IMG/VR virus record: IMGVR_UViG_3300049381_000011
Location: 31,942-95,941 of that record
From: a virus
Lineage: Duplodnaviria; Caudoviricetes
Reading direction: 5' to 3' (one strand)
Length of the DNA: 64,000 nt
Positions 12,878 to 57,676 of the stretch are shown here, piece after piece. How positions within the stretch are numbered: the first letter of the stretch is position 1; each line of letters starts with the position of its first letter. Position numbers and translations under genes: made by a program. Below the pieces are notes generated by a model that worked only from the letters and a program-made list of their open reading frames with translations, did not search any database and was not told the origin of the DNA.

Positions 12878-14539
12878 CTACGGTCGGGCTTCGTCGTCTG
12901 CCGGCCCGGGCCCGGGCTCGCCTGGCTTGCCGGGTGCGGTGTCGCCGGCGACACCGGTGCCTGGGTCGGCAACCGGCGGCGGGGCGTCCTCCTCACGGAT
13001 CCGGATCACCTCCTGCTCGATCTTCTTCGCATCCCAGTCCGGATGCAGCCTGCTGACAAGGGTGTGGACGGACGCGGCCCGGGCGCTGGCGAGCAGCTGC
13101 AGCGTTGTCGCCTCCTGCTGCGGGTCGACCGCCACCCCGTCCGGCCAGTTGACCTTCGGCATCGCGGCGACCATGCCGTCCTTGCCGAACTGTTTGATGT
13201 CGATTTCCTGCATGGCGTAGGCCAGCCGGGCGATCGGCCCCCGCGCGTACAGGAGTTTCTTTCCCCTGGTCCGGTACGAGGCTGCCTCCCGCGCGACCAC
13301 TTCCGTTGCTGTCGCGGCGACCTCGTCAGCCTCACCGAACGTTTGCGTGGAGTAGCCGGATCCGCGCAGGATCTGCGCCACCAGCTGCGTGCACGTACGG
13401 TCGTGCTGCTCGACTCTGATTTCAAACTGGACGTGCTCCAGCTTCATGCCGCCTTCGGTGGAGTCGATCAGGTCGACGCCGGTGAAGACCTCCTGCTCCA
13501 GGTCAAACGTCGCGCCGGCGCCACGACCAGCGGTCCGTAGGTAGGACTTCGGGACGATGATCCTGCCCTTGCCCAGGCGCAGGTCACGCATCCATGACGT
13601 CCACGCCTCGTCGAGGGCGTCCATGAGCGGCTCGACACCCTGGTAGTCCGACCGGCCCAGCGGCGACCCGCGCAGAATCCGGTTCGGGCGCATGTTCGGC
13701 AGGTACTCGACTGCCATACCGGTAGCACCGGTCACGATCGTCGTCCCGTCGGCCGGGTCGACGAGCAGAGCGAACGCCGTCGTTTCCGGATGCGCGGTCA
13801 GCGGCATCCGATGGCCGAGTTTCCCCTCGTCCGTCGACCTGTACAGAGCGTGTTGGACCTGGGCGGCGCGGTGGTATTCGAGGTGGCGCCACCAGTACTT
13901 GCTGTCGGTGCCCTCCAGCCGTTCCAGATGCCGCCAGAACGTCACCCCGACGAGCTGCTGGCCACGCCACTCCGGCACAGCAGCGTCAGGTGGGATCGCG
14001 TCGAGCAGCGGATGCGCGGCGACGACCGGGTCCCAGCGGACGCGTAGGTAGGCGCCGCCGTACGCCGCGGCGATCTCGCCAGCCTCCAACCAGATCGCCT
14101 GCGCGTTGGCCAGTTCCAGGATGTCGTTCAGCCGGTCTTTCGTCGGGTTCGTTGCCGGGCCCGCATCATCGTCCGGTTCCTCGCCGCCCAGCGTGGGGAA
14201 CAGGAATTCGGGTGGCTCACCGAACAGCAGGTCCGCGGACGTTGCCGCGACGTCACCGGCGAGCGGGATGTGGAGCTTGTGCTGTTTGGTTGATCCGGCG
14301 CCGGGTGGGCTGCCCCAGAACCGGCGCTGGATCCCGCGGGCGATCGCCGTCACGAACCGGGCGCCGGCCGGCTGCCCGGTCGGGAGCTCGCTACCGGGCC
14401 CGAACCCTGGCGTGTCCTGGTAGACGGCGGCGAGCTCTTCCGGGTCGCCGCCGTACCAGGCACCCCATTGCGCGTACAGCTTGTTCGCCGCGGCCGTCGA
14501 CGGCGGTGGCCACGCGACGTTAGTGACGGGCAGCGGCAT
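12878..14539 (-). CDS. Phage portal protein
   Basis: KLHIPLAGDVAATSADLLFGEPP, LGRSDY, LDEAWTSWMRDLRLGKGRIIVP, TATEV. Confidence 0.9.
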   Translation of the reverse strand: MPLPVTNVAWPPPSTAAANKLYAQWGAWYGGDPEELAAVYQDTPGFGPGSELPTGQPAGARFVTAIARGIQRRFWGSPPGAGSTKQHKLHIPLAGDVAATSADLLFGEPPEFLFPTLGGEEPDDDAGPATNPTKDRLNDILELANAQAIWLEAGEIAAAYGGAYLRVRWDPVVAAHPLLDAIPPDAAVPEWRGQQLVGVTFWRHLERLEGTDSKYWWRHLEYHRAAQVQHALYRSTDEGKLGHRMPLTAHPETTAFALLVDPADGTTIVTGATGMAVEYLPNMRPNRILRGSPLGRSDYQGVEPLMDALDEAWTSWMRDLRLGKGRIIVPKSYLRTAGRGAGATFDLEQEVFTGVDLIDSTEGGMKLEHVQFEIRVEQHDRTCTQLVAQILRGSGYSTQTFGEADEVAATATEVVAREAASYRTRGKKLLYARGPIARLAYAMQEIDIKQFGKDGMVAAMPKVNWPDGVAVDPQQEATTLQLLASARAASVHTLVSRLHPDWDAKKIEQEVIRIREEDAPPPVADPGTGVAGDTAPGKPGEPGPGPADDEARP

Positions 14540-14711
14540 CGTCCGTCGTCTCCTTGCGTCGCTTGCGGCCGGTCATCATGCGGTGGCGGTAGCGCCACGA
14601 GTACGACCCGGTGTCCTCGTCACGGATGAGCTGGAATTCGGGTTTGCAGTCGCATTTGTCGTTCGCGCGATGCTGGCCGGCTTCCGCGTACGGGATGTAG
14701 TGAGCCGTCAT
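14520..14711 (-). CDS. Small hypothetical protein (CxC)
   Basis: MTAHYIP...HRANDKCDCKP; overlaps portal start. Confidence 0.45.
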   Translation of the reverse strand: MTAHYIPYAEAGQHRANDKCDCKPEFQLIRDEDTGSYSWRYRHRMMTGRKRRKETTDDAAARH

Positions 14712-23241: not shown

Positions 23242-23278
23242 TTGACATAACTTGTATGCGACTACATACTAGTTATGT
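23242..23278 (+). promoter_or_regulatory. TTGACA-17-CATACT promoter overlapped by a 14-bp inverted repeat operator
   Basis: acataacttgtatg-cgacta-catactagttatgt (13/14 match). Confidence 0.7.
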
Positions 23279-23309
23279 AGCTGGTTGGCGATCGAGATTG
23301 GACACCGCG

Positions 23310-23477
23310 ATGAACGACATGGATCTCTTCGGCACCGAGACCACGACCGACACCGCCCCGGTCGTCGTCGAGCAGCTGGGCCTGTTCGCCACCGAGGCGT
23401 TCACCCGCCCGAAGCCGCTCCCCACCGTCGTCAAGGCGCCGAAGTTCGCCGACCAGCTCGACCTGTTCTCCAACTGA
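23310..23477 (+). CDS. 55-aa peptide with two beta-clamp-binding motifs
   Basis: QLGLF, C-terminal QLDLF, also MDLF. Confidence 0.6.
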   Translation: MNDMDLFGTETTTDTAPVVVEQLGLFATEAFTRPKPLPTVVKAPKFADQLDLFSN

Positions 23478-23488
23478 AGGGCCCGACC

Positions 23489-23890
23489 ATGACCGGCACC
23501 GACCCGCAGACTCCCCCCACCGACCATCCGGGCGACGTCGTCGACGAGGAGGTGAGGCGGGCTTTCGAGATCGTCGAGAGAGGCGCTCGGGCGCGGCTAG
23601 CGCTGCAGGAACAGGTTGCGTCGCTCGCCGAAGCGGCACGCGAGATCGACGACGACTTCCCCGCGCTGCCGATCGACGTGAGACGCATAACCTCCCACGT
23701 CATCGCCGCGACCATCTCGGACCTGGTCAGGATCATCGACCTGGCACAGACGGCGATCGTCACCGCGATCGGGGCCGGTCGCGACCGGCCCGGCGACCAG
23801 CTCACCCGCGCGCAGCTCGCCGACGCGCTGGGCATCGACCCCCGCAACCTCGAACGGCACAAGCTGGTCCGGAAGGCCAGCGAGATCTAA
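23489..23890 (+). CDS. HTH DNA-binding protein
   Basis: C-terminal LTRAQLADALGIDPRNL. Confidence 0.65.
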   Translation: MTGTDPQTPPTDHPGDVVDEEVRRAFEIVERGARARLALQEQVASLAEAAREIDDDFPALPIDVRRITSHVIAATISDLVRIIDLAQTAIVTAIGAGRDRPGDQLTRAQLADALGIDPRNLERHKLVRKASEI

Positions 23891-23894
23891 ACGG

Positions 23895-24275
23895 CTACGC
23901 AGTACCGGCGGGCGCCTGGTCGGGCTCGCCGGCTTTCTGCTGCCCGGTCCACGGGAGCATCAGCCCGTCACCCGGCCTACGCGGTATGACGTGCACGTTC
24001 AGGTGGAACACCGTCTGCGTCGCAGCCGTACCGATCGACGTGATGATGTTGCAGCCGATCAGGTCGCTGGCGAGCAGCGCGGCGATCCGCATCACCCGTG
24101 CGGTGGTGAGGAGGTCCGTAGTCGCGTCCGGGACGTGGAGCCGCGGTACGACGAGCATGTGTCCCGGCACGACCGGTTCGAGCGGCTCGAAAGCGACGGC
24201 GGAGCGCCAGCCGCGGTCAAACTCTCGGCGCTGGATCCGGTCGCAGAACGGGCACTGCTCCGCTGGCGCGTTCAT
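23895..24275 (-). CDS. HIT-family protein with HxNxH variant motif
   Basis: CPFC, PVVPGHMLVVPRLH, ATQTVFHLNVHVIPR. Confidence 0.85.
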   Translation of the reverse strand: MNAPAEQCPFCDRIQRREFDRGWRSAVAFEPLEPVVPGHMLVVPRLHVPDATTDLLTTARVMRIAALLASDLIGCNIITSIGTAATQTVFHLNVHVIPRRPGDGLMLPWTGQQKAGEPDQAPAGTA

Positions 24276-24688
24276 CGGGCGCACAGCACGATGTCGGCGG
24301 ACCGTTCGGCGACGACCCGCGCTGCCCGACGGCGAACCCAGCTGAAAAACAGCCGATTGCCGATGTAGCCGGCGGCCTGGGCGCCGGCGGCGCCGGCGAA
24401 CAGCCAACTGTGCCAGCCGGCGACGTCGAGCGCGCCGACGGTCAGCGCGCTGCACGTCAGCACGTTGATCCCGAATCCTGTGAAGCCGAGGATCCAGCCG
24501 GCCCGACCGGGGGACGCGAGCGCCTGCACCACAGCGAACTGGAGGTGCGGTGCGGCGGCGGTAATGGCCAGACGTGCGTCGGCGGCCGCGTGCCGCATGT
24601 CGGTCGTCGGTCGTTCGAGGAGCACGAGCTCAGCCGCGTCAAACGCGGCCTGGCTGATCGGGGCGAGAAGTTGCGTGATGGGTCGCAT
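24272..24688 (-). CDS. Membrane hypothetical protein
   Basis: GGAGG RBS; hydrophobic C-half. Confidence 0.5.
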   Translation of the reverse strand: MRPITQLLAPISQAAFDAAELVLLERPTTDMRHAAADARLAITAAAPHLQFAVVQALASPGRAGWILGFTGFGINVLTCSALTVGALDVAGWHSWLFAGAAGAQAAGYIGNRLFFSWVRRRAARVVAERSADIVLCAR

Positions 24689-24727: not shown

Positions 24728-24943
24728 CTACTTGTCTTCGGCGGGGGGTCTGGCCAGGCCGTGGGTGGCGATCGCGACGCCGAGGTCGCGCCACCCTTCC
24801 GCGACGGCCAGGAGCCGGCTCGCTTCGCCGATGCTCTCGCAGCTCTCGGCCTGGGCGAGCAGGACGGCTGCCCGTTCGGCGCAGGTGTGCCGGTCGACTG
24901 CCTGCGACTGTGGGACGGCGACGGGTGTCTCAGACGTCGTCAT
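24728..24943 (-). CDS. Small hypothetical protein
   Basis: ATGA overlap with terL. Confidence 0.5.
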   Translation of the reverse strand: MTTSETPVAVPQSQAVDRHTCAERAAVLLAQAESCESIGEASRLLAVAEGWRDLGVAIATHGLARPPAEDK

Positions 24944-26256
24944 AGGATGATCTTGTCCTTGATGTAGGGCCGCCAAAGCGACTCGGTGGTGTGGACGCCA
25001 TAGCGGAGCGCGTCGCAGCTGTGGTCATCGGCCTTGATCGGGACGTCTTCGCCCTTCTGGGCCTTCTCGTCATCCCAGCTGTAGCCCGGGATTTCGTCGA
25101 TCAGGCCGCGGCACGACTCGTGGACCAGCAGCCGGAAGTTCGCGAGCAGCGTCGCGACGTTCCGGATGCCGTCCAGGACGTTGTTGCGTGCTTTCGTCGG
25201 CGTGAGGTCGTCCTCGAACAGCTGGACGATGAACGACCTGGCGGACGGGTCGACGCAGATGTACTCCGGGTCGATCCCCCGCTGCGGGACGAGTAGCCCT
25301 GTCGCCGCATCCGGTGTGCCGGTGCCGGGGATCTCGTGGTTGGCCAGCCAGCGCTGGATCGACACGCTGTACTGCGCGTCGGTTTTGCTCTTGTGCGCCT
25401 GCTTGGCGTCGTAGCGGTATTCGCTGGTCGCGTACAGGCGCTGGTCGACGCCCATGCCGAGCGAGATCGCCGAGAACGGGTTGGAGGTGCCGTAGTCGAC
25501 GCCGACGGACAGCCAACGGTCCATGATCGGGAGCCGGTTGACGACGTGGCGGGACTCGTCCCACATGTCGTAGATCGCACCCTCAGCGGCGACCCAGTGC
25601 CCGAGGACGAAGCGGCGGAAGTAGAGGCCCACGAATTGGGCTTTGATCGCTGCTTTGAATTCCGGGTCGAGGAACGGGTTGTCGTCCAGGGTGAAGTGCC
25701 AGTGCCGCAGCCGGGTGTCCTGCGGCCGCAGGATGAAGTCTTTGCGCAGCCAGTGCGACGGGTTGTCGGGGTTGGTGGTGGCGAACAGCATCGCCCCGCG
25801 GACGCTCATGCGGCCCAGGAGCTGGGTCCAGAACTCGCGCGGTACGAGGGTCGCCTCGTCGACGTAGGCGCCGGCCACCGTCATGCCTCGCAGGCGGGTT
25901 TCCGCCCGGGCGTCGTTAGCTCCGATGATGTCGACGACCCTGCCGAAGATCCACGCCTGGTTAGAGCCGGGCGTGTAGTGGATCTCGTCGGCGATCGGTC
26001 CGAACAGCGCCGGGTCCTGCAGCACGGAGAACAGGTTCCGGTTGATCGTGTCCTTGGTGCGGCCGACCATGACCAGGCGGCCGCCGAGCGGCGCGTTACG
26101 GACGTACAGCACCCAGCGCAGCAGCGACGCGACCGTCTTGCCGGCACGGATCGCGCCGGTCCACACGTTGACGCGGGCCCGCGCCTGCCGGATCGACGCG
26201 AGTTGTGCCAGTGACAGCGGCGGCGCGGCGCGGAGCTCGTCGTAGGCGACGGTCAT
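24940..26256 (-). CDS. terL: Terminase large subunit (PBSX family)
   Basis: GAIRAGKT, YVDEAT, TTNPDNPSHWL, GVDYGTSNP, VDPSA, DDHSCDALRY. Confidence 0.95.
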   Translation of the reverse strand: MTVAYDELRAAPPLSLAQLASIRQARARVNVWTGAIRAGKTVASLLRWVLYVRNAPLGGRLVMVGRTKDTINRNLFSVLQDPALFGPIADEIHYTPGSNQAWIFGRVVDIIGANDARAETRLRGMTVAGAYVDEATLVPREFWTQLLGRMSVRGAMLFATTNPDNPSHWLRKDFILRPQDTRLRHWHFTLDDNPFLDPEFKAAIKAQFVGLYFRRFVLGHWVAAEGAIYDMWDESRHVVNRLPIMDRWLSVGVDYGTSNPFSAISLGMGVDQRLYATSEYRYDAKQAHKSKTDAQYSVSIQRWLANHEIPGTGTPDAATGLLVPQRGIDPEYICVDPSARSFIVQLFEDDLTPTKARNNVLDGIRNVATLLANFRLLVHESCRGLIDEIPGYSWDDEKAQKGEDVPIKADDHSCDALRYGVHTTESLWRPYIKDKIIL

Positions 26257-26834: not shown

Positions 26835-27088
26835 GACGGTTCACACCCCTTGACGGCGAGCACGGGGCACGGCAGCCGTCAACGTGATGTGAGTGGCGAC
26901 CCGGTGCCCGACCGGGACAGCCCCGGATTCAGTCCGGGTGAGACGCGGCAGCGCCCGGGGTGCCGATGATTGGGCACACTCCGGGCGCTGCGTAAGGCGT
27001 TGGATGGATCCTGACGGGTTGGCGGGTGGTCGTCAAGCGTGTCGCGGTTTGGTGTGTTTTCTGGTCCACCAAAACCAGACATAATCGT

Positions 27089-27172
27089 GCACATGTTATT
27101 GACGATTTAACGGGTTGGGGATAGAATTGATCTACACCCGGGGTGCTGGAACACCCCACCTGACCAGGGAGA
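27089..27172 (+). promoter_or_regulatory. Shared promoter (TTGACG-17-TAGAAT) plus CTGGAA hairpin
   Basis: 21-mer gcacatgttattgacgattta identical at 27089, 27487 and 29967. Confidence 0.8.
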
Positions 27173-35268: not shown

Positions 35269-35946
35269 ATGACCAGCAACAACGCACTCAAGAAGCAGAT
35301 CCGAGCCCGGATGGCCGAGACCGGCGAGCCGTACACCGCCGCCCGGTCCGCGCTCCTGACCGCCGAACGGCCGGCGATCGACCCGCAGCTGCTCGCCCCT
35401 TACCCGTACGAGCTGATCCGCCCGGCCACCGCCGGCGACAACTGGAAGCCGCCGACCACCGAAGAGCTGGGCTGGCGAGCCCTGCCAGCCGACGCGACCC
35501 CCCAGCAGCGCGCCACCGCCGAGTCGTACTGGCGGCCTGTGAACCCCGACCTCCCATGCCGCTGCTCCGGACCATGTGCCCACGGCACCGAGTGCGAATA
35601 CGCCCCCGACTGCCCCGGCCGGCTCTGGCACAGCGACCGCCGCGCCTACCTCAGCAGCAGCCCCGACCTCCTCATGTGGCACGACCTCTACATCTGCAGC
35701 GGCGACTGCGGCGACGATCTGGAAGACGTCGCCATCACGACAGTGCCGTGGGGCCGACGCGTCGCAGGCGAACTGCGCCTGTTTCCTGGCATCCGACGTG
35801 CCGACGTCCTGCCCGCCGAGTGGCAGTGCACGGAGTGCGGCGCGGCGAACCAGTATTACTGCGGCTGCCGCGACATGAACGACCCCGACGAGTGCGAGGA
35901 ATGCGGCGCCACCGGCCCGTACGCCTGTGGCTGCAATGAAGACTGA
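35269..35946 (+). CDS. Cys-rich hypothetical protein
   Basis: N-term KKQIRARMAETGEPYTAAR; multiple CxxC. Confidence 0.65.
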   Translation: MTSNNALKKQIRARMAETGEPYTAARSALLTAERPAIDPQLLAPYPYELIRPATAGDNWKPPTTEELGWRALPADATPQQRATAESYWRPVNPDLPCRCSGPCAHGTECEYAPDCPGRLWHSDRRAYLSSSPDLLMWHDLYICSGDCGDDLEDVAITTVPWGRRVAGELRLFPGIRRADVLPAEWQCTECGAANQYYCGCRDMNDPDECEECGATGPYACGCNED

Positions 35947-36514
35947 TCCGGACCCGACGATCGCCCTCAGCCGCGGCCTCGCTGTGTTCGGCCTGCCGGC
36001 CGGTGAGCGGAGGGCCTTGCCCGGCTGGCAGGGCCACTGCATCCGTACCGTCGACGAGCTCGCGCTGCGATGGCGGCCGGGGGACAACCTCGGGATCGGC
36101 TGCCGCGAGTCGAATGTCGTCGGCGTCGACCTGGACCGCAAGGATGGAAAGGACGGCGTCGCCGAGCTGGACCGGCTCGCCGCGGCCGCCGGCGCGGGCT
36201 GGCCAGACACGCTCACCGTGGCGACGCCGAACAACGGCCTGCACCTGTACTTCCGCATGCCGGCTGGGATCGCGGTCCCGTCGACCACCGGAAAGATCGG
36301 CCCCGGGATCGACGTCCGCGCCCCGGGCCGCCGCCAGGGCGGCTACCTCATCGGCCCAGACTCGGTGGTCGGCGGCCGCCGGTACACGATCGAGCACGAT
36401 GTTGCCGCGGCGATCCTGCCCGGGTGGCTCGCCAGGCTGGTACGAGCCGGCCGGCGACCAGCGACGTCGAAGCTGCCCGGGTGGACTACTTCGCCGGGCA
36501 GCTTCGCGAAGTAG
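35936..36514 (+). CDS. Bifunctional DNA primase/polymerase (Prim-Pol) domain protein
   Basis: GLAVFGL, NLGIGC, VDLD, TPNNGLHLYF, GIDVRA, GYLIGPDS. Confidence 0.85.
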   Translation: MKTDPDPTIALSRGLAVFGLPAGERRALPGWQGHCIRTVDELALRWRPGDNLGIGCRESNVVGVDLDRKDGKDGVAELDRLAAAAGAGWPDTLTVATPNNGLHLYFRMPAGIAVPSTTGKIGPGIDVRAPGRRQGGYLIGPDSVVGGRRYTIEHDVAAAILPGWLARLVRAGRRPATSKLPGWTTSPGSFAK

Positions 36515-37991: not shown

Positions 37992-38633
37992 CTACCGCCC
38001 CGGCACCTCCAACACCCGCACACAATCCCGCCGGAACAGAGTCCTCGCCTCACTGTCCTGCCGCGCCGCGACCATCCGACCGTCAGCCGTCCACCACTCG
38101 CACGCCGTGCACCACCCCTCCCGCGCGTCAACGTCGCCGACCGCGACCAGGCCGCAGCCCGGACAGGAAAACTCGAGACGTGCCGGCAACTGCCCGAGCG
38201 TGTCCACCCCGCGGTCATAGCCGGCCAGCGCCGCGTCGAGCCCGTACGGGTCGGCGGCACGGTGCACCAGCTCCCGAATCTCGCCGACCGTCCGTGCCTG
38301 CCCGATCAGCGCACCGAACAGGTCGAGCTGCGTCCCCGTGTACTGCTGCGACGCCCAGTACCGCGCAGCCCCCATCATCGGCCTGGCCGGGTCTTCGATC
38401 AGCAGCCCAATCAGCCGCGACCGGTGTATCTCGTCGGCGCGCGCCTGATCACGGTCTGACATCTCAGCAAAGACCCTGATCGACGCGTACTCGAACGTGC
38501 GAGTGTCGAGCACCGTCAACACCCGTGCCGGCACCCGCCAGTCCGCCGCCAGGTCCACCGGCCGCCCTGTCCACCCGTGCAGCAGCAGGTACCGCTCATC
38601 CCGGTCCGGCGACACCAGGTCCTGCTCACTCAT
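37992..38633 (-). CDS. Hypothetical protein (internal QLDLF, C-terminal Zn ribbon)
   Basis: CPGC..CTAC; coupled. Confidence 0.6.
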   Translation of the reverse strand: MSEQDLVSPDRDERYLLLHGWTGRPVDLAADWRVPARVLTVLDTRTFEYASIRVFAEMSDRDQARADEIHRSRLIGLLIEDPARPMMGAARYWASQQYTGTQLDLFGALIGQARTVGEIRELVHRAADPYGLDAALAGYDRGVDTLGQLPARLEFSCPGCGLVAVGDVDAREGWCTACEWWTADGRMVAARQDSEARTLFRRDCVRVLEVPGR

Positions 38634-39229
38634 GCGCGCCCCTCCAAAAGCCCCTCAGCCATCGCCTCAACCTCGTCATCCGTCAGGTCCGGATCATCGC
38701 GTCGAACCTTGGCCCTCATCAGCTTGTACGCCTCGGTGGCCATCGACATCGCCAGCTGGTACATCGTCACCGCGTCCATCGGATCCGGCTTCGGCGGCAG
38801 CACTACCGCAGCCGAAGCGTCGATCCCACTCACCCAGCCGGGAACGATCTGCCGCGCCGCTACCAACGCCTCGACCGGCCCGACCTCCGGAGCCGTGCCC
38901 AGCAGCCCGCCCCAGATCTGCGCCGCCAGGTCGACCACCGCGCCCGGGTCGCCGGCGACGGCGGCCGCCTGGACGTCACGCCGCAGCGCTCCCGCCAGCA
39001 TCTCCCGACCGGCGTCGGTCAGCAGCACTTCGTAGTAGCCCTCCGCCACGGCGAGCTTCCGCTCGATCAACCGCCATACGCCGTCGACCCGGTGCCCGCA
39101 CGGGATCGTGTCGTCGTACACCGTCCAGTGGTCATCGCCGATCGACGACACCTCACCGGCCGCGATCAGCCGCAACAGCACCCCCACCGTGCCGAGCTGC
39201 GCCGCCCTACGGTCCTCAATGCTCGTCAT
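38630..39229 (-). CDS. Hypothetical protein (winged-helix-like)
   Basis: LLTDAGREML. Confidence 0.55.
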   Translation of the reverse strand: MTSIEDRRAAQLGTVGVLLRLIAAGEVSSIGDDHWTVYDDTIPCGHRVDGVWRLIERKLAVAEGYYEVLLTDAGREMLAGALRRDVQAAAVAGDPGAVVDLAAQIWGGLLGTAPEVGPVEALVAARQIVPGWVSGIDASAAVVLPPKPDPMDAVTMYQLAMSMATEAYKLMRAKVRRDDPDLTDDEVEAMAEGLLEGRA

Positions 39230-39708: not shown

Positions 39709-40386
39709 TCACGCCACCTCCTGCGGCAGGTAGTGCAGCGCCTTGCGGTGCCTGGCTGCCAGTTCCCGTCGGGATTCGGTGGGATCGGAGTCTCGGTCGC
39801 ATTGCTCGGCGAGCAGCGGCAGGCCGGAGTCGATCGACTCGATGATTTCGGCGCGGGTTGCTGGTCTGCCTGCGGCCCACCAGGACGTCATGGTCGGGTC
39901 TTTGAGCTGGAACAGCACCCCGTAGGTGTCGCCGACGGGAGGCCGGAATGTTGACCATCCGCTGACCCAGATCAGGCAGACGCCCGGGTTGCGGAGGATC
40001 GCTACGCCGGCGAAGCCGAGGTCGTCGGGCAGGCCGCGTTGGCGGCGGTTCATCTCCGGTCGGACCATGAACGGGCATACCTTGGCGGCGTACTCGGCAC
40101 ACTCGATGTGTGATGGCGGGTCTGGTGACACCCGGTTGATGGCACACATCGGGCCGATCACGAAGGCGGAGTCGGCGCGGCGGCGTTTCTGGCCGCAGAC
40201 CCAGCACATCCGGTCGGTGATGCATGCCGCGTAGGCGGTGGGGTCGGCGATCCGGAAGTCCCGCTCTCCGTCGATCTTGGCGGCGAAGAAGGGAATCGGG
40301 TACCCGGCGCGGTTGCGGGGCAGCGCCCGGATCCGGCTGGGCATCTGAACAGTGCGTAGGAGAGACAGCTGCTCTATGGACGTCAT
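39709..40386 (-). CDS. Phage hypothetical protein (Zn-binding)
   Basis: GYPIPFF, CWVCG, PPSHIECA, CPFM; GGAGG RBS. Confidence 0.7.
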   Translation of the reverse strand: MTSIEQLSLLRTVQMPSRIRALPRNRAGYPIPFFAAKIDGERDFRIADPTAYAACITDRMCWVCGQKRRRADSAFVIGPMCAINRVSPDPPSHIECAEYAAKVCPFMVRPEMNRRQRGLPDDLGFAGVAILRNPGVCLIWVSGWSTFRPPVGDTYGVLFQLKDPTMTSWWAAGRPATRAEIIESIDSGLPLLAEQCDRDSDPTESRRELAARHRKALHYLPQEVA

Positions 40387-55405: not shown

Positions 55406-57676
55406 CTATCGCTGGGAGAACTGGATGTCGAACATGAGCCCTTTACGGTTGCGGATCGGCTGGGCGATGGCGCCGGCCAACACACCGCGATCGCGGAACG
55501 AGTAGATCGTAGTCCTGGCCTCGGGCGCGCAGCCTTCAGCGGCCATCTTCGTCAGGGCCGCGGTCGGGGTGATCCCTTCCCAGCCTGCCTCTTTGACGAT
55601 TCCCAGGAAGCGCGTGTACGGGTCGATGGCGTTGTACGCCGGCCCGTCGTAGGCGGCCTTCACCCGTTGGAACGCTGCCTCTTCCACGGCGTCCATCTCG
55701 GTCGACTCGTCGTCCGGGTCGTCGGTGAGCGTCGCGACCGGCGACGTCTGGAACGGCGACTCCTGCTCGTCGTCGACGCCGAGCAGCTGCGCGGCGTTCG
55801 CCGGCACGCCGGCCTCCGGCCGGGCGGCCGGTGCGTTCCAACGTCGCTCGGGGTGTTCCTCGCCCCAGAACCATCCGAGCTGGTCGCGGTCCCAGCGGTG
55901 GGAGTAGCCGTACCTCTCGATCGCGGCCGCGGTGCCCTCGTCGAGGTCCGGCCGCCACTGGGTGTGCTCGAACACGGCGCCGTGGACACGCCGCACGTGG
56001 TCGTCGCCGTCACCGAGGAAGTCGAACTTCGCCCGGACCGGCTGCGGGTTGTCCTGGTCCTGGACGACGACGGAGCCTTTGTGGAGCAGCTGGGCGTGCA
56101 TGCGTGCGCCTGCGGTCCGGTCGCTGCCTTGGAAAATGTCGCTGCTGTCGCCGGTGTCGGCCATCCGCCACCCGTACCGGCCGCCCATCTGCGATTTCGC
56201 GTCGCCGCCGGGCATCATCGTGACGGTGGCGCGCTGCGACGCGGTGATGAAGTAGACGCCTTCGCCGGCGCCGAGCATGTGCCCGCGGGTGATGAATGCC
56301 GCCAGTTCGGAGCTGCTCGCCCCCTGGCTGAGATCGCCGAAGCCGGGCTCGGCGTACTGGCCGGTACCTTCGGCGATCTCGTCGGAGATGACGAAGATCG
56401 CAGGGTGCTTCGGGGTAGCCATCCACTTCGTGCCGCTGGCGAGCCGCGGGCGTGCCTTCGCTGCCGCGATCGCCGACAGGAAGATCCGCTCGGCGACGAA
56501 CCGGTTCGTTCCCACCCAGTCGATGATCGGCCGGGCGAGAGGTCGATCGGTTCGCGGGTCGATGACGTTGCGGAGGTACAGCTCGACCCATGCCCGGAAC
56601 AGCCGGCCGCCCTTGAAGTCGATACCCCAGATGAGAGCGTCGGTGCAGCGTGACAACTGCCAGATGAACACCCCGATGCCGTTGCTCTTGCCCTCACGGG
56701 TTTGACCGACGAGCATCCGGTGGATGTCGGCAGGGGTGGTCATCAGCGGCAGGCCGTTTTCGAGGACGCCGAGCCGGAACGCGTTGTAGATCGACATTGC
56801 GCCGTGCTCGGCCGGCATGTAGGTGATCCGGGCGAGGATGTCTTCGAGGTCGACGTAGATCTTCGCCCGGGTAGGAACGGGCTGGCCCTTGAAGTTCACT
56901 CCGCGCTCGATCCGGATCGCGCCGGACCGCACGCCGCCGGAGTCGGCGAAGACCCGGTCGAGGACCATCTCCAGCGCTTCGAGACCGTTGTCCAGAGCCG
57001 TGAAGTTCATGCGCGAACCTTCAGCGAATTCGACGTCCAGGACGAAGTTGCTGTCGATCGTGACCTGGCGGCGCTGGAACAGCAGACCGTCCAGGCTCGC
57101 CCGGCGGAAGATGTCGTTCCACTCGTCGCGTTCTTTTTCCTCTGGCGTCCGTACCGGAGGTGGTGGGGGCGGCGGCTGGACGGGTGCTGGCGGCTGGACG
57201 GGGATCAGACGCCGGCGCTCGCGGAGATCCTGTTCCAGGCTCAGCTGGGAGGTTTTGACCCGGTGCCACGTCGCGGTGCCCGCGAACGCGAGAACTGCCC
57301 AGATGGCCAGCGCGGCGTATCCGCCGTAACCCCACCCTTCGCTGGTCAGCGGAAGCGCCGATGTCGCGGTGGTCGCGGTGAGCCACAGCACGCCGGTGAA
57401 GACGGTGGCGGGCTGGTAGACCCGAAGCGGGGCGCTGTAGTCGTCACCGAGGTGGGTGAGCGTCAGGACGACGGATGCGATGAGCGCGAACGCGAATCCG
57501 ACACCGGCGACGGTGAGCCGGTCGACGATGCCGGTCAGCGGGGCGTGACTTGTTCCGATCCCGACCAGGAACAGCAGTCCCCAACCGATCGCGGGCACGT
57601 ACCAGGACCGGCCGGGACGCCACAGGGTGCCGTAGGGGGTGAGCGCAGCCTGCCGGGTGGTGTCGATGGTGGCCAT
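55406..57676 (-). CDS. traB: FtsK/SpoIIIE-family TraB-like conjugative DNA translocase
   Basis: N-terminal TMs; Walker A GQTREGKS; IDFKGG; Walker B VISDE; ASQRAT; C-terminal wHTH-like region. Confidence 0.8.
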   Translation of the reverse strand: MATIDTTRQAALTPYGTLWRPGRSWYVPAIGWGLLFLVGIGTSHAPLTGIVDRLTVAGVGFAFALIASVVLTLTHLGDDYSAPLRVYQPATVFTGVLWLTATTATSALPLTSEGWGYGGYAALAIWAVLAFAGTATWHRVKTSQLSLEQDLRERRRLIPVQPPAPVQPPPPPPPVRTPEEKERDEWNDIFRRASLDGLLFQRRQVTIDSNFVLDVEFAEGSRMNFTALDNGLEALEMVLDRVFADSGGVRSGAIRIERGVNFKGQPVPTRAKIYVDLEDILARITYMPAEHGAMSIYNAFRLGVLENGLPLMTTPADIHRMLVGQTREGKSNGIGVFIWQLSRCTDALIWGIDFKGGRLFRAWVELYLRNVIDPRTDRPLARPIIDWVGTNRFVAERIFLSAIAAAKARPRLASGTKWMATPKHPAIFVISDEIAEGTGQYAEPGFGDLSQGASSSELAAFITRGHMLGAGEGVYFITASQRATVTMMPGGDAKSQMGGRYGWRMADTGDSSDIFQGSDRTAGARMHAQLLHKGSVVVQDQDNPQPVRAKFDFLGDGDDHVRRVHGAVFEHTQWRPDLDEGTAAAIERYGYSHRWDRDQLGWFWGEEHPERRWNAPAARPEAGVPANAAQLLGVDDEQESPFQTSPVATLTDDPDDESTEMDAVEEAAFQRVKAAYDGPAYNAIDPYTRFLGIVKEAGWEGITPTAALTKMAAEGCAPEARTTIYSFRDRGVLAGAIAQPIRNRKGLMFDIQFSQR

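Follow-up and report, generated by a model that had tools for sequence, protein, structure and literature searches.

The two-gene cassette and its promoter

A 64,000-nt stretch of viral DNA, hereafter the window, was analyzed with a focus on a small plus-strand unit at positions 23242-23890. The window comprises bases 31942-95941 of the 95.9-kb IMG/VR virus record IMGVR_UViG_3300049381_000011, which is 93% complete and has a GC content of 66-72%. The unit contains a promoter overlapped by an inverted repeat, a gene for a 55-residue peptide and a gene for a 133-residue protein. The peptide carries short motifs resembling those that bind the bacterial beta-clamp DnaN, and it may be a multivalent ligand of the host clamp. 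The unit is located in an accessory stretch of the phage, with terL on one side and head genes on the other, and both of its genes are antisense to an array of minus-strand neighbours. It is best explained as an independently transcribed two-gene cassette, antisense within the late-gene/accessory region of a ~96-kb phage. The host is presumed to be a high-GC actinobacterium, as TerL (24940-26256, minus strand) shares ~55% identity with terminases from Streptomyces phages.

A sigma-70/HrdB-type promoter is present on the plus strand at 23242-23270, with TTGACA (23242-23247) and CATACT (23265-23270) separated by a 17-nt spacer, and agrees with this type at 10 of 12 positions. It was the one such site found in the 1.2 kb scanned, compared to 0.1 expected in shuffled sequence. 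Two independent metagenomic contigs that are ~97-98% identical to the window (L003 and L004) contain the identical promoter. The preliminary description of this locus had placed a 14-bp inverted repeat over the promoter, and this was confirmed. The AT-rich arms (23245-23258 and 23265-23278) are complementary at 13 of 14 positions, are separated by a 6-nt gap and overlap the promoter spacer and the -10 hexamer. No further copy with up to three mismatches was found in the whole 95.9-kb record. Its position suggests that the repeat acts as an operator.

The peptide gene (23310-23477 including the stop; codons 23310-23474, stop 23475-23477; plus strand) is coding. Its GC contents at codon positions 1, 2 and 3 are 0.62, 0.40 and 0.98, similar to the 0.64, 0.44 and 0.92 of terL, while the frames overlapping it have third-position values (GC3) of 0.49-0.55 and no coding pattern. 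The same open reading frame (ORF) was called by gene callers on both L003 and L004, where the frame is kept and four differences are seen, of which two are synonymous and two replace linker residues (T39V and V40A). The start at ATG 23310 aligns with the MEQLDLF start of a group of related peptides (P0005-P0009, described below). Two longer versions of the gene were considered and rejected. An ORF from GTG 23181 has an upstream part with a non-coding GC3 of 0.49, and its frame is broken in L003 and L004 by a 2-bp indel located between the promoter and ATG 23310. A fusion with the frame of the 133-residue protein, starting at TTG 23285, was discarded for the same upstream GC3 (0.49) and the same indel. 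It could still be argued that the ORF is untranslated, a frame left open by chance within the 5' leader of the downstream gene, since ATG 23310 has no clear Shine-Dalgarno sequence and the ORF has no family match in Pfam or PHROGs. This is very improbable, however, as a GC3 of 0.98 combined with 0.40 at the second position is the coding pattern of this genome, and the differences between the contigs are those of a maintained frame.

The 133-residue gene (23489-23890, plus strand), the candidate autorepressor or partner of the peptide, is likewise real. It has a GC3 of 0.89, is preceded by the ribosome-binding-like sequence GAAGGG and starts 11 nt after the peptide stop in another reading frame. 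Its product contains no clamp motifs. A single-sequence AlphaFold2 (AF2) model with a predicted local distance difference test score (pLDDT) of 68 consists of a long hairpin, formed by predicted helices at residues 14-56 and 64-96, and a short three-helix end, in which the C-terminal helices (107-132) have pLDDT values of 34-59. No match was obtained when the PDB was searched by sequence. A dimeric protein consisting of a hairpin plus a helix-turn-helix (HTH), bound to the 14-6-14 palindrome over its own -10 hexamer, would be a reasonable model for an autorepressor. We infer autoregulation from this geometry only.

Clamp-binding motifs and related peptides

The consensus for binding to the bacterial beta-clamp is QL[S/D]LF (PMC12867686, PMC11139829), and QLDLF is the strongest-binding pentapeptide (PMC11139829). 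Three motifs of this kind were found in the 55-residue peptide. Motif 1 (DMDLF, residues 3-7, 23316-23330) is degenerate, keeps only DLF and aligns with the N-terminal QLDLF of P0005-P0009. Motif 2 (QLGLF, residues 22-26, 23373-23387) is a QL.LF variant known also from the C-terminus of E. coli Pol II, and it aligns with the conserved Q[LI][SA]LF of P0005-P0009. Motif 3 (QLDLF, residues 49-53, 23454-23468) is an exact match to the consensus and ends two residues from the C-terminus. Motifs 1 and 3 both lie within two residues of the peptide termini, the linkers are 14 and 22 residues long, and T, P, A, V and K make up 47% of the residues. The peptide is indeed little more than short clamp-like motifs joined by T/P/K-rich linkers, as the preliminary description had stated. 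A partner with more than one motif should bind with added avidity, an effect that is not yet understood (PMC11139829).

The motifs are non-random. None of 2,000,000 shuffled versions of the peptide contained two QL.LF motifs. Among the 119 phage genes retained after GC3 filtering (23,265 residues), QL[SD]LF was seen three times against 0.013-0.017 expected, corresponding to ~200-fold enrichment, and the broader QL[SDG]LF four times against 0.023-0.028 expected; neither count was reached in any of 2000 shuffles. Chance is thereby excluded as the origin of the motifs. When the peptide was modelled by AF2 with an alignment of its family, the predicted template modelling score was 0.15 and no secondary structure was seen except at residues 45-49; the peptide is predicted to be intrinsically disordered.

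Clamp motifs were also found on other proteins of mobile elements and bacteria. IMG/VR was scanned for QLDLF located no more than three codons from a stop, and such C-terminal tails were found in phage contigs on N6-adenine methyltransferase-like proteins, Mor-like HTH regulators, an rve-type transposase and others. Pairs of consensus motifs at one terminus, separated by 20-27 residues, were found on bacterial proteins in Nonomuraea (two C-terminal motifs; L060:2180-3271 and L074:2142-3182), Aurantimonas (two C-terminal motifs; L053:6426-7367) and Sorangium (two N-terminal motifs; L031:4161-5210). The tagging of mobile-element proteins with clamp motifs is thus a known and common kind of arrangement. 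The tagged transposases and phage methyltransferases resemble the window peptide in carrying QL[SD]LF in a flexible terminal region, but their tag tethers an enzyme or a DNA-binding domain. The window peptide stands out as a product without any cargo domain.

Both cassette genes are orphans by the searches that were made. Translated searches (tblastn) with both genes against 50,697 phage records gave no match, a search of IMG/VR for related loci found none, and a word search of 5.8 billion proteins with both genes returned only ~97% identical copies. A phmmer search of 1.84 billion representatives with the 133-residue protein returned only its own cluster and two spurious long proteins, and the best score in the ESM Atlas (0.76) was uninformative. 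Relatives were therefore sought by pattern. Scanning IMG/VR DNA for tandem motifs in GC-rich codons gave only low-GC repeats and out-of-frame noise, and the pattern DLFGT...QLxLF had no match there. When species-representative genomes were scanned likewise, for pairs of QLxLF motifs spaced by 17-27 residues and encoded in GC-rich codons, most matches were due to chance or lay in large proteins; the useful results were the enzymes with tandem terminal motifs and a 62-residue ORF in a Micromonospora genome (L069). Searching with a profile of this ORF and the window peptide yielded another four peptides, 62-67 residues long (P0006-P0009, E 1.5e-9 to 1.8e-6).

The peptides P0005-P0009 share a layout consisting of a MEQLD[LI]FGTAT start, a variable A/P/T-rich linker with indels, Q[LI][SA]LFRPDF, a basic [KR]APK and an LDPxLHxxTLI end. 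The window peptide is 35-38% identical to them and has in common the spacing of the start, DLFGT-x-T, QLxLF and V[KR]APK. Motifs 1 and 2 are conserved across P0005-P0009 while the linker length varies, and such conserved short motifs with free linkers have the look of short linear motifs in a disordered chain. Common descent of the window peptide and P0005-P0009 is plausible but unproven. The P0005-P0009 genes are accompanied by an ECF sigma factor, a tyrosine recombinase and an FtsK/SpoIIIE-like protein of PHROG 31069, in regions that look like mobile elements of Micromonospora type. Downstream of them lies a conserved ~160-residue protein or a 385-residue protein, and no homologue of the 133-residue gene.

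Two further observations concern these elements. The window itself encodes an FtsK/SpoIIIE-like protein (55406-57676, minus strand) of phrog_31069, and the same PHROG adjoins a clamp-motif peptide in a related metagenomic element (L277:3-2501), which hints at kinship between the phage and that element. On the Micromonospora contig G001:C23, a nearly identical promoter/leader of ~85 nt precedes four different genes, including a clamp-motif peptide gene (copies at L142:1480-1720, L143, L144 and L145, at ~55.5, 92.7, 73.7 and 40.8 kb). The leader contains a GGGCGGCC...GCCGCCC hairpin and a GAGGAG ribosome-binding site. This suggests that the genes behind it are regulated together, perhaps by the neighbouring ECF sigma factor.

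Proposed role of the peptide and alternative explanations

The replication genes of the phage bear on what such a peptide could do. The only DNA-synthesis enzyme detected was a 195-residue Prim-Pol (35927-36514, plus strand; PF09250, E 9e-29; phrog_5852). Neither DnaN nor a DNA polymerase of family A, B or C was found in the 93%-complete record, where a gene in the missing part is possible. A phage-encoded clamp was rejected as the target, as the DnaN domain is absent from the record. From this gene content, the phage probably depends on host DNA polymerase III and the host clamp. An outright arrest of replication is therefore an unlikely purpose of the peptide. The preliminary description had proposed that the peptide arrests host replication; this is not supported and is somewhat disfavoured, since a phage lacking these genes probably needs a working host clamp. 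A dosed competitor, in which the operator would explain the dosing, or an adaptor fits better.

The reading of the peptide as a clamp binder, also made in the preliminary description, has gained support that is indirect. It comes from the consensus QLDLF, the enrichment in the proteome, the tails on phage proteins, the conservation of motifs in the related peptides and the predicted disorder. On these grounds, we lean towards the view that the peptide binds the clamp as such. Our preferred reading is more specific, namely that it is a multivalent binder of host clamp pockets under the control of a co-transcribed autorepressor, and we assign this a probability of roughly 45%. According to this proposal, a host-type promoter would drive the cassette, and the peptide would dock in the hydrophobic pockets that receive clients on the host DnaN dimer. 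With several motifs on one flexible chain, binding would be by avidity, and both pockets of one ring could be filled. The peptide would then compete with host clamp clients, e.g., polymerases and repair enzymes, and it may reserve clamps for other phage proteins carrying the same motif. The 133-residue helical-hairpin/HTH protein would probably bind, as a dimer, to the palindromic operator overlapping the promoter. Since the phage seems to require the host clamp for its own use, autorepression would hold down the dose of the peptide.

Several known systems can be compared with this proposal. MuC of phage Mu has a near-consensus clamp motif at each end, and its over-expression is toxic or lethal through the clamp; Mor, of the same phage, has an N-terminal DLF alone, which is required for its function, and its over-expression is also toxic through the clamp (PMC12867686). 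The motifs of these proteins are like those of the window peptide, and the lone N-terminal DLF of Mor parallels motif 1. MuC and Mor are, however, folded HTH activators with the motifs on the same chain, whereas the window peptide is nearly all motif and the HTH-like protein is encoded by a separate gene. SocB of Caulobacter and RipA of S. pneumoniae are toxins of toxin-antitoxin (TA) systems that act on the hydrophobic pocket of DnaN and stall replication (PMC12795458). They are encoded in small gene pairs, as is the window peptide, but neither is known to consist of motifs alone, the antitoxins differ from HTH autorepressors of the kind proposed here, and no sequence relation of the cassette to TA/defence models was detected. 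Both SocB and RipA are larger than the 55-residue peptide.

The best-studied phage inhibitor of the clamp is Gp168 of Staphylococcus phage Twort, a folded, oligomeric protein that sits as a plug in the DNA channel and prevents loading (PMC8565349). Gp168 is small and acts on the host beta-clamp in the course of takeover, as is proposed for the window peptide, but it uses neither the client pocket nor a QLxLF motif. Among eukaryotic proteins, p21 is a disordered binder of PCNA. Spd1 of S. pombe is likewise a small disordered PCNA binder, with tandem motifs, whose one or several short motifs occupy the client sites of the clamp (cited in PMC11139829). The comparison is an analogy only; Spd1 and p21 differ from the window peptide in both the clamp (PCNA) and the motif (PIP/APIM). 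Synthetic QLDLF-derived peptides and griselimycin are ligands of the same pocket and inhibit clamp-client interactions, and griselimycin is an example of natural DnaN targeting by actinobacteria (PMC11139829). The synthetic peptides are monovalent and griselimycin is a non-ribosomal cyclic depsipeptide, in contrast to the gene-encoded, multivalent window peptide.

Several results weigh against the preferred reading. The preliminary description had an HTH gene following the peptide; the gene is real, but the HTH assignment is weak, as the HTH_20 match of its product (E 5.6e-4) scored 20.3 bits and thus fell under the 27-bit cut-off. Fold searches with the model of this protein returned generic helical hairpins only, covering residues 6-99 (best Foldseek E 0.57; VIA-align Z up to 9.9). 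Motif conservation in homologues, which the preliminary description had named as a check, gave a divided answer. All three motifs are unaltered in L003 and L004, but this says little at ~97% identity. P0005-P0009 have motifs 1 and 2 but not motif 3, with the LDPxLH end in its place, and their homology to the window peptide is uncertain. Pairwise BLAST between the window peptide and P0005-P0009 aligned the motifs only, in short low-complexity segments, and the likeness may be convergence. A strong pocket blocker would also be expected to hinder a phage that relies on the host replisome.

The absence of motif 3 from P0005-P0009 would also agree with a real small protein whose LF motifs serve a non-clamp role, at another host or phage hub, or are a by-product of internal duplication. 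Look-alikes do occur, as shown by a QLSLL in another phage protein that is unconserved in its homologues (see below). Nevertheless, the peptide combines the exact strongest-binding clamp pentapeptide with a second QL.LF in a disordered chain of 55 residues, the motif is strongly enriched in the proteome, and the same tail recurs on DNA-acting phage enzymes. We consider a non-clamp role unlikely. A further explanation is a TA, abortive-infection or addiction pair, in which the peptide would be a clamp-poisoning toxin like SocB or RipA and the 133-residue protein both antitoxin and operon autorepressor; upon loss of the antitoxin, the peptide would be freed to stall replication. The compact two-gene operon with its own promoter and palindromic operator would suit such a pair, as would its moron-like antisense orientation in an accessory island. 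There is precedent for TA toxins striking the same clamp pocket (PMC12795458), and E. coli is killed by over-expression of a protein with such motifs (PMC12867686). This explanation is nonetheless improbable. Neither gene had a convincing TA/defence family match in Pfam, PHROGs, NCBIfam or PADLOC: a PADLOC match to PD-T7-4 (E 0.009) had no passing domain and is noise, and a match of the 133-residue protein to Xre-like-HTH, an antitoxin domain, was below threshold (E 0.033). In addition, the Micromonospora-type relatives have another downstream partner, and an obligate toxin-antitoxin pairing is therefore not conserved.

The peptide could also be an adaptor coupling transcription or recruitment to the clamp, i.e., a bridge between the DNA-loaded clamp and the 133-residue protein, RNA polymerase or other phage proteins. 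Gene expression or DNA processing would then be tied to replication, as for MuC/Mor and T4 gp33/gp55-gp45. The MuC/Mor activators are ~130-140-residue proteins with a C-terminal HTH and clamp motifs at both termini (PMC12867686), IMG/VR contigs contain Mor-like proteins that end in QLDLF, and here a motif-bearing peptide is co-transcribed with a 133-residue protein that has a weak C-terminal HTH. The probable need of the phage for the host clamp is also in line with an adaptor. Against this, the 133-residue protein had no Mor-family match in Pfam at E values up to 0.1, and the HTH is on a different polypeptide from the motifs. Apart from its motifs, the peptide offers no evident further surface for binding beyond the short basic [KR]APK it shares with its relatives, and a repeat over the -35/-10 spacer and the -10 hexamer has the geometry of a repressor site, not of an activator site. 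We consider an adaptor quite improbable.

On the preferred reading, that of a repressor-controlled multivalent clamp binder, the window peptide would be a clamp client pared down to its motifs, and a few peptides like it are present in mobile elements of actinobacteria. A wider proposal, which we make tentatively and regard as doubtful, is that it forms with P0005-P0009 a class of gene-encoded, cargo-less, multivalent clamp-pocket ligands of actinobacterial mobile elements. Such ligands would be a phage/bacterial counterpart of p21 or Spd1, holding both DnaN pockets by avidity and either displacing the repair and translesion clients of the host or slowing its replication, at a dose set by a repressor. 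The beta-clamp pocket is a validated antibiotic target (griselimycin and QLDLF-derived peptides). If clamp binding is true, the peptide would provide a minimal model for avidity on the clamp and a template for bivalent inhibitors. It would also be a new kind of phage host-takeover or regulatory factor, extending the emerging picture of systematic use of the host clamp by mobile elements, as with MuC/Mor, transposases and phage methyltransferases. If the clamp is not bound, it is one more orphan small phage gene.

Other motif carriers and surrounding genes

Two more proteins of the phage carry QLDLF, and no family match was found for either. One is a 213-residue protein (37992-38633, minus strand) with an internal QLDLF at residue 102, and the other a 140-residue protein, encoded outside the window (G000:C1:10251-10673, minus strand), that ends in QLDLF plus six residues. 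Directly upstream of the gene for the former, with a 4-nt stop/start overlap, lies the gene for a 199-residue protein (38630-39229, minus strand). This protein matches the Rv0078B-related antitoxin domain PF18993 over its C-terminal 35 residues (E 5.3e-6; 26.8 bits, cut-off 27.1). The N-terminal QLSLL of a Cys-rich 225-residue protein (39709-40386, minus strand) was considered as a further clamp motif and rejected because it is absent from the Rhizobium phage homologue. Homologues of this protein occur in ~109-kb Rhizobium phages, one of them annotated as ‘putative clamp loader subunit’.

The minus-strand neighbours of the cassette are a HIT-family gene and genes for a phrog_5845 protein, a 57-residue product and a 347-residue protein. 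The HIT-family gene (23895-24284; PF01230, E 2.9e-10) is convergent with the cassette and has a weak PADLOC match to ThsC, also of the HIT family (E 2.2e-4). Inside its 3' end, a weak terminator-like hairpin for the plus strand, with a 5-bp stem and a T-poor tail, was noted at 23916-23942 with low confidence.

An AT-rich motif, TGTTATTGACGATTTA, is present at three places in the phage record: at 27070-27130 of the window and, outside it, at ~13445-13485 and ~14625-14665 of G000:C1. The copy in the window forms a promoter-like TTGACG-17-TAGAAT, and the motif may represent a phage promoter that recurs, different from the cassette promoter, which is unique.

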